A stretch of DNA of 64,000 nucleotides from Nitrospirota bacterium (GTDB lineage: Bacteria > Nitrospirota > UBA9217). Every line of letters begins with the position of its first letter. The first letter of the stretch is position 1. The stretch lies in contig CAVVOB010000012.1 of the NCBI GenBank assembly GCA_963749655.1, positions 1 to 64,000 of the forward strand. Reading direction: 5' to 3'. Below the pieces are notes generated by a model that was given only the letters and a program-made list of their open reading frames with translations, did not search any database and had not been told where the DNA came from. A program made the position numbers and the translations under genes. Positions 33,199 through 39,226 of the stretch are shown one piece after another.

Positions 33199-34611
33199 CT
33201 AGGAAGGGGTATCAGGTCCATCTGGACGGGATAGCAGCGGGAGGGGAATATTTACCGACACACAGGTGCCGGCATCGGAGGTGAACATGACGGTGCCGCC
33301 GATTTCGGCGGCGCGGACCTTCATATTCGATACGCCGCGGCCCTTGCCGGAATGCGCAGCATGGTCGTAGCCGAGCCCGTTGTCCCGAATGGTAAGCGAG
33401 ATTCGTTCCTTGTTCACCTGAAATCCCACGGTGACATTTTTTGCTTTCGAATGCTTGATGACGTTGGTGAGGGCCTCCCGGTAGATCCGGAACAGGTGCA
33501 GGCACAGAAGGCTTCCCGGCCTCGTAACGCTTTCATCAATTTCCGCTTTTAAATCGAATGCGATCGCGTGGTGCTCGACGGTCTTTGTGCCCCGGTTGCG
33601 CAGCTCGGCGATGAGCGTGTGCCAGTTCAGATCGTTCCGGTCGAGACTGTACATAAGGCTCCTGATCTCTCCCATCCCTTCGCGCGACAGCTCCAGAATC
33701 GTATTCAGCGATTTGCTGATATCCTCCTGCGAAGATGCTTTCAGGGCGACTTCGGTGAGCATGCATATGTTCGTCGTTATGCCGCCGATGCCGTCGTGAA
33801 TGTCCATGAGAATCTTTTGAAACGCCTGCTGGGCCGCCCGGCGCTCATCAAGCATCGTATTAAATGCTGTTGCAAGCTTTCCTACTTCGTCCGTTCCCGT
33901 TACGGGCACCTGGGTGACTATGCCTCCCTGGCCCATGACCCTCACATTCTCAGTCAGCGCCTCCAGAGGATGCGTGATTTTTTTCACCCCCAGATATACG
34001 ACAAAGGCGCTCGCGCAGATGAAAATAAAGGCGATGATCGCATTTCGTTTCAGCATGCACAGGATCTCCCGGTCCAGGGCTTCTTTGCCCAAAACGATCC
34101 TTACATGCCCGATCACGCGGGTATTCGTGCCGGGCTCCTGATCGCCGAAATAGAGCACCTTTTCTTCATTCGGATAAATCGTTAGAACGACGGGCTTCAT
34201 GAACTCCAGCGTACGATCGGTAGCCTGTGTCGGCGTGGCCAGTTCCGTTTTTATGACCTCATCAGGCGTCCCGGGTTCCCGATTAAAATCTGTATTCGCC
34301 GACGATTTGCTGATCACGTATAACTGCTTCATGTCGGCGTTGTATATTTCCACGAGAACGACGTCCGGTTCAGCGGCTACACCGGCGGCAACGTCCTTCA
34401 AAAGATCCCTGTTTTCCGCAAAAACGCCCGTCCGAGAACTGTATGCAAGGAGGTTCGTCAGCAGCTCGCCCTTGTTCGTGAGCTCCTTTCGCACCCGTCG
34501 CTCCTCCGAGAAAACGGCGAAAAGCGTATAGACCGTGAGCATGGTCACAATAATGAGAATGGATGCGCTGAGCAGCCTGAATACGAGGCCTTTTTCAGGG
34601 AATAATTTCAT
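33199..34611 (-). CDS. Membrane sensor histidine kinase (periplasmic domain, HAMP, HisKA_3-type H-box, HATPase)
   Basis: Two TM helices, DEVGKLATAFNTM, DIHDGIGG, EALTNVIKHS, DNGLG, GRGVSNM; GGAG RBS before ATG at 34611. Confidence 0.9.
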   Translation of the reverse strand: MKLFPEKGLVFRLLSASILIIVTMLTVYTLFAVFSEERRVRKELTNKGELLTNLLAYSSRTGVFAENRDLLKDVAAGVAAEPDVVLVEIYNADMKQLYVISKSSANTDFNREPGTPDEVIKTELATPTQATDRTLEFMKPVVLTIYPNEEKVLYFGDQEPGTNTRVIGHVRIVLGKEALDREILCMLKRNAIIAFIFICASAFVVYLGVKKITHPLEALTENVRVMGQGGIVTQVPVTGTDEVGKLATAFNTMLDERRAAQQAFQKILMDIHDGIGGITTNICMLTEVALKASSQEDISKSLNTILELSREGMGEIRSLMYSLDRNDLNWHTLIAELRNRGTKTVEHHAIAFDLKAEIDESVTRPGSLLCLHLFRIYREALTNVIKHSKAKNVTVGFQVNKERISLTIRDNGLGYDHAAHSGKGRGVSNMKVRAAEIGGTVMFTSDAGTCVSVNIPLPLLSRPDGPDTPS

Positions 34612-34615
34612 TTCG

Positions 34616-35566
34616 CTACTCCACTTTTTCCGCATTTCGAATTGCCTCTTCGTCGAGCCGTAATCCGATTTTTGCAGCAACCTTCGTGTTCACGATGAGG
34701 TGGGGGGTTCTTGCATAAGCGCGAGAGGGAGCTCTTTCGCCCCCGGTCAGGTGCCGTACCTGCTCTCCGGCCTGGACTCCCATATCGTAGGGGTCAATCG
34801 TCAATGCGGCCACCGCCCCTCGCTCGACGTATTTTTTTGCGAAGGAGAAGACCGGCAGCTTGTTCTGAAAGGAAAAGAGCATCAGGTACTCGATTGTTTC
34901 GGAGTTGACGAGCGTCGAATCCGGCAGCATCCACAGAATATCAACCTTGTCCCGCAGTTCATTCAAAGCCGCAGGCACCTGCTGCGGATTGCCGACCGGC
35001 TTGATGATCAGGGTCATCCCTCTGTTCCGGGCGACGGCTGACGCCTCCTCGACGAAGGGGCCCGTATGTTCAGGGTCAAAGAGCACCCCGATCCTTTTGG
35101 CCGAGGGAAAAAGCGGGGCCATGGCTGCAAAGTACGTTGCCGGCGCAATGTCCATGCTCACGCCCGATACGTTGTCCGCAGAAAGAACCGCCGTTTCGGA
35201 CGGGATCACCATGGTGTAGATTATCGGAACGTCCTGGATAGTTCGCGCTTTTTTGAACGCCTTGGTGCCGACGGCGAAGATCGCGCTGGGGCGCTCGGCT
35301 TCGACGATGGCCAGCACGTCGTTGTCCGAAAGCCCCAGCTCTTTCATCGTGCAGCCGCAGGCGGTCTTGAATCCCTGAATTGCGTCACGGTAGGGTTTGA
35401 TATCGGTGTCTTTTATGACGATGACTTCATGAGCTGCTGCGGGGAGGGGCAGACCGAACAGGCACAGCATGAGCGCAGCCCCGACAACGACGGCGCTCAG
35501 TTTGCTGCCGTGAATAATGCAGGGCCGGTGAGTGGCAGATGGACGGAGGTTATGACTTGTCCGCAT
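34616..35566 (-). CDS. ABC-type periplasmic substrate-binding protein (ABC_sub_bind family), no cognate permease nearby
   Basis: Signal peptide ending PAAA-H, IFAVGT.A, GVSM, KRIGVLFDP, LWMLPD, V..GA, INTKVA..IG; start uncertain. Confidence 0.85.
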   Translation of the reverse strand: MRTSHNLRPSATHRPCIIHGSKLSAVVVGAALMLCLFGLPLPAAAHEVIVIKDTDIKPYRDAIQGFKTACGCTMKELGLSDNDVLAIVEAERPSAIFAVGTKAFKKARTIQDVPIIYTMVIPSETAVLSADNVSGVSMDIAPATYFAAMAPLFPSAKRIGVLFDPEHTGPFVEEASAVARNRGMTLIIKPVGNPQQVPAALNELRDKVDILWMLPDSTLVNSETIEYLMLFSFQNKLPVFSFAKKYVERGAVAALTIDPYDMGVQAGEQVRHLTGGERAPSRAYARTPHLIVNTKVAAKIGLRLDEEAIRNAEKVE

Positions 35567-39022: not shown

Positions 39023-39186
39023 ACAGGCCCCACTTGATGGAAAAAGATATGGTGATGCGAACTAAGGAATCAGGCTTCGGAGCAAGTCCGCCGCCAGGGT
39101 TATCGTTTCGAAGGTTATCAGGCAACAATGCCGCGTGAAGGTATACGGAAGAGGGAACGGCGCATCGGCGCCTCTCCACGGGGACG

Positions 39187-39226
39187 AGAGTACACTAAAT
39201 ATGAAAAAATTGCAAGAATCTCTTGC
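39187..39226 (-). promoter_or_regulatory. Putative promoter of the TBDR-RiPP operon with adjacent palindrome
   Basis: TTGCAA (39215-39210) - 17 nt - TACTCT (39192-39187); inverted repeat gcaaga-atc-tcttgc at 39212-39226. Confidence 0.45.

Follow-up and report, generated by a model that had tools for sequence, protein, structure and literature searches.

A short peptide with an invariant Cys-Cys pair, the radical S-adenosylmethionine (SAM) enzyme that very probably modifies it, a TonB-dependent receptor (TBDR), a periplasmic binding protein and a sensor kinase form a conserved module that recurs across bacterial phyla in several gene arrangements. The member of this module described here lies in DNA from a Nitrospirota bacterium (GTDB lineage Bacteria; Nitrospirota; UBA9217), within positions 1 to 64,000 of contig CAVVOB010000012.1 of GenBank assembly GCA_963749655.1; this whole stretch of 64,000 nucleotides is called the window below, and coordinates refer to it unless another locus is named. 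The cluster would encode a ribosomally synthesized and post-translationally modified peptide (RiPP), and the explanation that we favor, with slightly better than even confidence, holds that the TBDR brings a secreted, cross-linked peptide back into the periplasm for sensing by way of the binding protein and the kinase.

The five-gene locus

A preliminary description of the window had pointed to five tightly packed, co-directional and intact genes, and the list of open reading frames (ORFs) and the family matches agree with it. Between 33199 and 39022, the minus strand carries the five intact ORFs head to tail, and the junctions among them are overlapping or short. The features of the locus, in the order of transcription, are as follows.

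37148-39022, minus strand: TonB-dependent receptor, 624 aa, with Plug and TonB_dep_Rec_b-barrel domains (Pfam)
36912-37100, minus strand: precursor peptide, 62 aa, with its ATG behind a GAGGAGG ribosome-binding site
36972-37079, minus strand: 15-nucleotide tandem repeat inside the peptide gene (Tandem Repeats Finder)
36879-36898, minus strand: GC-rich hairpin and T-rich tract between the peptide and maturase genes
35550-36857, minus strand: radical SAM/SPASM maturase, 435 aa, TIGR04280
34616-35656, minus strand: periplasmic solute-binding protein of family PF04392, 346 aa as listed, with signal peptide
33199-34680, minus strand: sensor histidine kinase, 493 aa, with sCache_4, HAMP and HATPase_c domains

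The five genes look like a transcription unit of their own, because a terminator-like hairpin at 39212-39226 ends the unrelated Peptidase_S51 gene that lies upstream of the cluster.

Conservation of the module

Evidence that these genes belong together comes from related loci, of which 80 were kept from 566 candidates, giving 81 with the window. According to their record titles, 48 of the 80 are of Nitrospirota type, 19 of Geobacterales/Desulfuromonadales type and 10 of other Desulfobacterota types, and the last three bear the labels Deferribacteres, Pseudomonadota and "uncultured bacterium"; three of the 80 are from cultured Geomonas strains. The ORF families that recur among the 81 loci are those of the radical SAM enzyme (81), the TBDR (72), the sensor (64) and the binding protein (60), and the next family is found in 6. 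The naive ORF caller behind these numbers sometimes took antisense shadow ORFs, and counts by tblastn are safer. In the 42 loci with at least 5 kb of DNA on both flanks, tblastn detected the TBDR in 41, the binding protein in 38 and the sensor input region in 32, and six more of these fully flanked loci, all of Geobacter type, carry a sensor ORF beside the binding protein.

This linkage is not a matter of a single inherited gene order. A co-directional arrangement like that of the window is found in 25 loci, and in 16 others the kinase and binding-protein genes are divergent from a TBDR-peptide-maturase group. In Geomonas, the kinase, binding-protein and TBDR genes are all divergent from the maturase gene, and in the Geobacter-type loci the binding-protein gene is upstream of the maturase gene with a convergent TBDR gene downstream. 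The association of radical SAM enzyme, TBDR, binding protein and sensor thus survives at least four gene orders, and the linkage extends across phyla.

The distribution of the genes among whole genomes leads in the same direction. The maturase scores over its family cut-off in 15 of 61 related genomes, and TBDR orthologs (at least 38% identity) occur in 13 genomes, every one of them among those 15; in the two maturase genomes that have no TBDR ortholog the maturase gene is at a contig end. No TBDR ortholog was found in the other 46 of the 61 genomes, where no match rises above about 33% identity. Binding-protein orthologs (at least 39% identity) also track the maturase genomes, with four exceptions: genome G056 has a maturase and only a 30% identical, unlinked binding-protein paralog, G008 has a binding-protein fragment only, G033 has a binding-protein ortholog, and its maturase is a mere fragment at a contig end that scores below the cut-off, and G003 is taken up below. 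Three genomes (G063, G064 and G065) have a radical SAM locus that is separate from the binding-protein/kinase pair, which is encoded elsewhere in the genome (38-39% identity for the binding protein), and in a fourth genome of this kind a weaker pair (28%) is found elsewhere.

Several genomes hold two clusters with different peptides, as in G013 (loci L034 and L039) and in the metagenome-assembled genome (MAG) of loci L055 and L079. One genome has the whole cluster twice, and the second copy (locus L040, G019:C6:164000-183000, at about 6700-12150) appears to be decaying; its TBDR, maturase, binding-protein and sensor matches are each in two to four pieces, and an ORF for a Cys-Cys peptide remains.

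The precursor peptide

The 62-residue precursor of the window, MAARVKVKKKATKKKSAKKKATKKKATKKKAAKKKTAKKKSAKAKASMPLCCPWGTMITYRR, consists of a polybasic leader and a core that starts at Cys-Cys, with 10 residues after the pair. Its gene ends 54 nucleotides upstream of the maturase gene; a longer ORF of 89 aa starting at 37181 would overlap the end of the TBDR gene. The polybasic part of the leader, (KKKxx)n, is encoded by a repeat with a period of 15 nucleotides (7.2 copies, 76% matches, score 118).

Peptides of this kind accompany the maturase almost everywhere. In each of 14 intergenic regions taken from related genomes, a short Cys-Cys ORF lies between the TBDR and maturase genes, and a short Cys-Cys peptide is encoded upstream of the maturase in 71 of the 80 related public loci (70 by set criteria, plus L052, where it is located further upstream). 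Six of the nine loci that do not have such a peptide are cut by a contig end; in the three others, L081, L096 and L102, a Cys-Cys peptide was looked for and none was found. The suggestion that a Cys-Cys peptide adjoins the maturase has therefore held up well, and the peptide is very probably the substrate of the enzyme.

In a typical member of the peptide family, 30-35 residues long, about 10-13 residues separate a leader motif (KRIVVLKKG or EIVVLDEG, for example) from the invariant Cys-Cys, and 7-13 variable residues follow the pair up to the C-terminus. The conserved leader motif can be written [IVL][IV]V[LI]-x-x-G, and its counterpart in the window peptide is RVKVKKK. Net leader charge is as low as -9 in Geobacteraceae and Desulfobacteraceae and reaches +25 elsewhere, and polybasic leaders are confined to a subset of the Nitrospirota loci. 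Of the preliminary description's "polybasic precursor", then, the polybasic character is present in the window and does not extend to the family; the polybasic leader is a clade-specific tandem-repeat expansion.

The curated model for geopeptide precursors, TIGR04229 (22 positions, cut-off 30 bits), does not match the window peptide at E<=10. It gives a partial match of 21.4 bits to a Geomonas peptide, and no match to one Nitrospirota and one Geobacter-type relative. The true precursor family is thus far broader than this model. With a model of CC-motif metallochaperones, a Geobacter-type peptide matched weakly and below threshold (E 0.079, 13.2 bits, cut-off 100).

Of 71 loci, 57 have a hairpin with a T-tract 3' of the peptide gene, compared to 33 of 213 shuffled intergenic controls. 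The hairpin at 36879-36898 in the window is likely to act as a partial intrinsic terminator that would give an excess of precursor transcript. A sigma-54 promoter before the peptide gene was considered as a sign of autoinduction by NtrC-type regulators and rejected as a general feature, as it was found in 2 of 70 loci (L058 and L103) and not in the window; the two sites, of the TGGCAC-N5-TTGCA type, are about 100 nucleotides upstream of the peptide gene, at 3849 in L058 and 3954 in L103.

The maturase

The preliminary description had noted a resemblance of the radical SAM enzyme to TIGR04280, the "geopeptide radical SAM maturase" family, and the resemblance turns out to be a full-length family match. 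The score is 582.7 bits (E 4.6e-175) against a cut-off of 400, spanning residues 3-429 and profile positions 1-427 of 428; the genome-level search gave 582.4 bits. Pfam detects Radical_SAM (57.7 bits) and Fer4_12 (33.7 bits) in the protein and lists no separate SPASM match. The cysteines expected of a radical SAM/SPASM enzyme are in place, for in 15 aligned sequences C96, C100, C103, C293, C327, C346, C381, C384, C390, C394 and C410 are invariant; the first three of these make up the radical SAM CX3CX2C motif, and C327, C346, C381, C384, C390, C394 and C410 the C-terminal SPASM set.

The NCBIfam models that rank after TIGR04280 are CefB, TIGR04463, PapB and the SCIFF maturase, all far under their cut-offs (144 bits against 340 for PapB, and 102.6 against 425 for SCIFF). 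Among proteins of solved structure, the thioether synthase CteB comes closest by sequence profile (5wgg, E 8e-34). An AlphaFold model of the maturase, with a mean predicted local distance difference test (pLDDT) value of 82.2, has as its top Foldseek matches the CteB structures 5why and 5wgg (E about 1e-19 to 1e-20), in alignments of about 440-460 columns that include the N-terminal domain. Residues 9-81 of the model form three strands and then three helices (pLDDT 82-93). Pfam PqqD does not match the protein; the modelled N-terminus, ahead of the barrel, has a beta3-alpha3 layout like that of a RiPP precursor recognition element (RRE).

Identity as an anaerobic sulfatase maturase was tried and rejected, with TIGR03942 giving 75.4 bits against a cut-off of 349.45 and the anaerobic sulfatase maturase structures ranking under CteB. 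The enzyme accordingly falls with the peptide-modifying SPASM enzymes, as had been supposed, rather than with those that modify proteins. Profile matches and the structural model together identify the maturase as a TIGR04280 radical SAM/SPASM enzyme of the CteB-like, putatively thioether-forming type.

These same matches mean that the system is not new in the sense first claimed for it, since the family is already curated under TIGR04280 and TIGR04229, though it is uncharacterized. Our literature search found no paper that names "geopeptide" or TIGR04280, with the proviso that surveys of radical SAM RiPPs in subscription journals may mention the family. It also turned up nothing relevant on radical SAM/SPASM RiPPs with a TonB-dependent receptor or a histidine kinase, nor on ranthipeptides in Geobacter.

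The receptor and the binding protein

The TBDR has a signal peptide, a plug and a barrel of the 22-strand type; Pfam scores are 78.4 bits for Plug (residues 57-161) and 143.6 bits for TonB_dep_Rec_b-barrel. It falls under every NCBIfam equivalog cut-off, the best being the BtuB-like TIGR01779 (168 bits against 599.7), and its best match in the PDB is the BtuB plug (E 1e-26). A TonB-dependent transducer of the FecA type was considered and discarded, as Pfam finds nothing beyond plug and barrel in the 624 residues and there is no N-terminal STN domain. The cluster TBDR is the sole TBDR-like gene detected in its own genome (tblastn, E 1e-4), and TonB C-terminal domains are encoded in that genome on contigs C18 and C27.

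The binding protein matches PF04392 (ABC_sub_bind) with 91.9 bits and has the PDB relatives 3lkv, 3lft and 6hni; its score against the TrpX-like model NF041285 is 74.3 bits, with a cut-off of 390. Its true start is probably Met31, at 35566, because most of the orthologs align only from about residue 47-75. It too is alone of its kind in its own genome, being the sole PF04392-like gene detected there (tblastn, E 1e-4). No ABC permease or ATPase gene recurs beside the binding-protein gene in the 81 loci, and none is present in the neighborhood in the window, so that a reading of the protein as a component of an ABC importer was abandoned. A search of the literature on PF04392 together with histidine kinases returned general papers on solute-binding proteins only.

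The sensor kinase and its predicted complex with the binding protein

The conserved neighbor of the binding protein is a sensor rather than a transporter. In the window, the kinase has a first transmembrane segment, a periplasmic sCache_4 domain (about residues 58-210), a second transmembrane segment, HAMP, a HisKA_3-type region and an HATPase domain, with Pfam scores of 27.2 bits for sCache_4, 37.4 for HAMP and 45.2 for HATPase_c. The best NCBIfam matches are UhpB, MctS, NarQ and LiaS, all under their cut-offs. The HisKA_3 assignment given to it earlier is borderline in the protein itself, which scores 23.9 bits against the Pfam cut-off of 24; a close relative from locus L050 reaches 42.6 bits for HisKA_3 and is adjoined by a LuxR-type regulator. 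The best candidate for a partner regulator in the window's own genome, also of LuxR type (C38:110117-110746), is 38% identical to the L050 regulator, and as it is unlinked to the kinase it is not assigned to it.

Seven sensors encoded beside a binding protein were scanned in the related loci, and HAMP was found in 7 of 7 and sCache_4, at E<=0.001, in 6 of 7. Their transmitters are of three types: PAS, HisKA_3 and HATPase with an adjoining LuxR-type regulator; HisKA and HATPase with an adjoining NtrC-type sigma-54 activator; and hybrid kinases with receiver domains. A LuxR-type regulator was also found 3' of the maturase gene in the one divergent-type locus tested. The statement that the locus encodes no response regulator thus describes the window correctly and does not describe the family, in which relatives do encode regulators beside the sensor. 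Because sCache_4 and HAMP are kept while the transmitters differ, the conserved partner of the binding protein is the sensor input domain, and the comparison of the sequences points to a partnership between binding protein and sensor.

Sigma-54-like sites were also seen 3' of the ORF that follows the sensor gene in six loci, namely at 6002 in L045, 6457 in L054, 13120 in L064, 12456 in L072, 12461 in L074 and 9769 in L085. The ORF after the sensor gene is presumed to encode an NtrC-type regulator in these six loci, the type having been confirmed by Pfam only in L055. Among the genes next to the site are a member of an Amidohydro_2 cluster in L064 and L072 and a member of a DUF3108 cluster in L085 (names taken from Pfam runs on the L062 members only).

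Structure prediction for binding-protein residues 76-346 with kinase residues 58-210, using an alignment of 51 rows for each, gave a complex score of 0.65, compared to 0.01 for the best of three controls. That mark is reached by 58 of 80 solved complexes and by 2 of 110 mismatched pairs, a comparison that is rough since custom alignments were used. At least 94% of the contacts are shared between runs, and pLDDT does not fall below 71 for either partner. The model supports, and does not show, docking of the binding protein on the periplasmic domain of the kinase. We know of no solved complex between a PF04392 protein and an sCache_4 domain.

In the predicted interface, kinase loop 166-180 (LTIYPNEEKVLYFGD) lies against residues from both lobes of the binding protein, where P88, G130, M149, M168, P245, F272, A273 and K275 make up the interface; kinase Tyr177 is among the closest contact pairs. 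The loop, with consensus EExLYF, would thus sit in the binding-protein cleft. Among 51 sensors, the conservation of the loop is E/D173 in 42, E174 in 40, L176 in 37, Y/F177 in 39 and F178 in 31. Two sCache_4 paralogs from the same genome that have no binding-protein neighbor also have no EExLYF, which is suggestive (n=2) of a tie between the motif and the binding-protein neighbor. An aromatic loop in the cleft is plausible, because the solved PF04392 proteins tabulated in one study bind Trp, Tyr or Phe (PMC10443332, Table 1).

Models for the function of the module

The favored explanation, re-import and sensing of a secreted cross-linked peptide, can be laid out as a series of steps. The RRE-like N-terminal domain of the maturase would bind the leader motif, and the enzyme would form cross-links from one cysteine, or from the two of them, to carbon atoms in the stretch of 7-13 residues that follows. 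Leader removal and exit of the product would occur by routes encoded outside the locus. The dedicated TBDR would carry the product back across the outer membrane into the periplasm, where it would meet the transporter-less binding protein docked on the sCache_4 domain of the kinase. Ligand binding would then alter the output of the kinase to a response regulator, which in relatives is of LuxR or NtrC type and adjoins the kinase gene, and which in the window's genome would be encoded elsewhere. The product would serve as an extracellular cue, either signal or carrier, coming from the cell itself or from its neighbors. The import, capture and sensing of the peptide are inferred.

A number of observations weigh against this explanation, for which all the support is comparative or modelled. 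The residues after Cys-Cys are variable, with no conserved acceptor. No conserved exporter, leader protease or ABC permease was found in the 81 loci, leaving release of the peptide unexplained, and no response regulator adjoins the kinase gene at the locus in the window. The solved PF04392 proteins as tabulated bind free Trp, Tyr and Phe, and peptides do not figure among those ligands (PMC10443332, Table 1). With the loop modelled in the cleft, a ligand might not fit there, or might have to compete for the site, and the interface residues are weakly enriched in conserved ones (one-sided Mann-Whitney p 0.04 and 0.02). Furthermore, by tblastn 12 of the 80 loci have TBDR and radical SAM genes with neither binding protein nor kinase in the available DNA, and three of the 42 fully flanked loci (L047, L080 and L096) have neither binding protein nor sensor. 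Finally, the 98% complete genome G003, from the same genus, has no maturase (E<=1e-60) and no TBDR ortholog, and encodes the binding-protein/sensor pair at locus L123 (G003:C3).

9390-10322 of L123, minus strand: binding protein, 44% identity
6683-9409 of L123, minus strand: 908-aa sensor, 36% identity

With regard to export, a half-size protein of the major facilitator superfamily (MFS_1, 187-189 aa) is encoded directly 3' of the maturase in six divergent-type loci only. The L091 protein scores 82 bits for MFS_1 over profile positions 10-175 of 347 (Pfam was run on L091 only). It is possible that the protein is the exporter in that sub-clade; no homolog was found by tblastn in the window's genome. 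The six genes are listed here by locus.

L065, 8302-8871: half-size MFS gene
L067, 8302-8865: half-size MFS gene
L087, 8296-8862: half-size MFS gene
L091, 8487-9053: half-size MFS gene
L105, 5741-6307: half-size MFS gene
L116, 2228-2791: half-size MFS gene

A more specific and rather doubtful version of the favored explanation is TonB-gated peptide quorum sensing in diderm anaerobes, with the variable tail as a "pherotype" and a switch that works by ligand displacement. The peptide, too large for porins, would be admitted by its dedicated TBDR, and would vie with the EExLYF loop for the PF04392 cleft, releasing or re-setting a pre-formed complex; that the mature peptide competes with the kinase loop in this way is speculation. 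Genomes that have the binding protein and kinase only, such as G003, would be eavesdroppers.

The main rival, which we consider unlikely, is that the product is a metal carrier of chalkophore or siderophore kind. Its modified Cys-Cys core would chelate a metal outside the cell, and the TBDR would import the complex, the binding protein capture it and the kinase report it, much as in methanobactin uptake by MbnT and MbnE or in ferric-citrate signaling. This differs from the favored explanation mostly in purpose and less in parts. The invariant Cys-Cys is the sole conserved feature of the core, and TBDRs are the classical importers of metal chelates; the cluster TBDR is closest to the BtuB, CirA and FepA plugs and is the only one detected in its genome. 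The metallochaperone match of the Geobacter-type peptide, weak and sub-threshold as it is (E 0.079), and the record titles, by which the hosts are metal-respiring or sulfate-reducing anaerobes, lean the same way. However, the 81 loci provide no inner-membrane permease or ATPase, and thus no route to the cytoplasm for a metal complex, and the cysteines would lose their thiolates if both became thioethers in a CteB-like reaction. In addition, a hypervariable tail and genomes with two systems fit recognition specificity better than they fit a common chelator, and Pfam finds no MbnB- or MbnC-type protein among all five genes.

In a further alternative, which seems distinctly improbable, the sensor responds to an unrelated ligand such as an aromatic amino acid derivative or a corrinoid, and the peptide and maturase are merely a co-regulated output that acts in the cell or its envelope. 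The amino acids bound in the tabulated PF04392 structures would be in keeping with such a ligand, as would the lack of a conserved exporter and the existence of PF04392 and sCache_4 sensor pairs with no maturase, both paralogous (L124 and L125) and, in G003, closely orthologous. It is the TBDR that fits this alternative badly, with orthologs in 13 of 13 cases in maturase genomes and in 0 of the 46 genomes outside them, and with its gene staying by the peptide-maturase pair through four gene orders, which would be unexpected for a generic nutrient sensor. A terminator-like hairpin belonging to the precursor gene is also typical of abundant, released RiPPs.

An antimicrobial ranthipeptide or sactipeptide of bacteriocin type, with TBDR, binding protein and kinase acting in immunity or induction, is very improbable: the closest enzyme families do include sactipeptide and ranthipeptide maturases, some with antibiotic products, and the hydrophobic cores of many family members could be membrane-active, but an importer for its own toxin would sensitize the producer, the loci share neither an exporter nor an ABC transporter for immunity, and the cores are very short (9-15 residues).

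Comparison with known systems

The closest described system is the geopeptide system of TIGR04280 and TIGR04229, with which the window shares a full-length TIGR04280 enzyme and a Cys-Cys peptide encoded just upstream, as in Geomonas and Geobacter. The window differs in that its precursor is missed by TIGR04229 and has a polybasic repeat leader, and in that it comes from a Nitrospirota MAG, not from a Geobacter. The thioether maturases of the CteB/SCIFF and PapB types have RRE, radical SAM and SPASM domains in a layout that the window enzyme, with its RRE-like N-terminus, resembles. Their substrates have many spaced cysteines, whereas the window substrate has one Cys-Cys pair, and those systems belong to Gram-positive bacteria and lack a TBDR, a binding protein and a kinase.

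Methanobactin operons encode the precursor MbnA, the TonB-dependent importer MbnT and the periplasmic binding protein MbnE, and therefore provide a precedent for a RiPP cluster that carries its own TBDR and periplasmic binding protein for re-uptake of the product. Methanobactin maturation depends on MbnBC, whereas that of the window peptide would depend on a radical SAM enzyme, with MbnBC-type genes absent from the locus. Methanobactin clusters also carry an exporter and sigma/anti-sigma regulators, in contrast to the two-component kinase and the lack of an exporter in the window.

On the sensing side, the parallels are LuxP-LuxQ, which detects autoinducer 2, and TorT-TorS, in each of which a binding protein with no transporter accompanies a membrane kinase, as in the window, where docking of the two is predicted. 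The families in the window are different (PF04392 and sCache_4), and so is the predicted placement of a kinase loop in the binding cleft. The window system also adds an outer-membrane TBDR upstream of the sensor, and because of this the ligand is presumably too large for porins.

Genomic surroundings of the locus

The source genome is a MAG of 4.27 Mb in 39 contigs, 86.57% complete and with 5.84% contamination; a search for RNA data gave none. The earlier remark that the surroundings of the cluster are rich in frameshifts holds for two nearby genes, which are split. In one, an EamA transporter gene on the minus strand at 30068-30995, the two repeats are in different frames; in the other, a beta-lactamase-family gene on the minus strand at 40847-41864, the frame changes between the parts that match profile positions 11-135 and 140-316. 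The splits may represent pseudogenes, or errors of assembly in view of the MAG origin of the sequence.

Just upstream of the TBDR gene, and co-directional with it on the minus strand, is the Peptidase_S51 gene (39334-40053, 144.8 bits). A role for its product as the leader protease was considered and is unsupported, as the gene recurs in no other related locus. The other neighbors include genes for a methyladenine glycosylase and a DoxX protein, and none of them recurs in the related loci. With these neighbors taken into account, it remains true of the window that no protease, exporter or response regulator is encoded at the locus. Farther upstream, a 281-aa ORF (42095-42940, minus strand) has a signal-peptide-like N-terminus and matches no Pfam family at E<=0.001; judged by eye, it may encode an outer-membrane protein.

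Conclusions

The cluster belongs to a family that has been named and not studied, and hence it is no categorically new system. What is new is the finding that TBDR, binding protein and sCache_4 sensor are parts of one conserved module with the peptide and its maturase across phyla; the modelled complex of binding protein and sensor and the clade-specific polybasic leader are also new. Should the product prove a metal carrier, the five genes are still a unit of a new type for the uptake and sensing of a RiPP, and the PF04392 and sCache_4 proteins, in their predicted complex, would make up a co-sensor pair of a new kind.

Signaling by peptide autoinducers is regarded as a habit of Gram-positive bacteria, and diderms are thought to rely on small diffusible molecules, since their outer membrane keeps peptides out. 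A RiPP cluster with its own outer-membrane importer, binding protein and kinase would, if the favored explanation is true, answer this problem of peptide exclusion, and would assign a function to the curated and so far unstudied TIGR04280 enzymes. Members of the family are widely distributed in iron- and sulfate-reducing lineages of environmental importance, including Thermodesulfovibrionia, Geobacteraceae and Desulfobacteraceae, and its presence in cultured Geomonas strains makes the idea directly testable.

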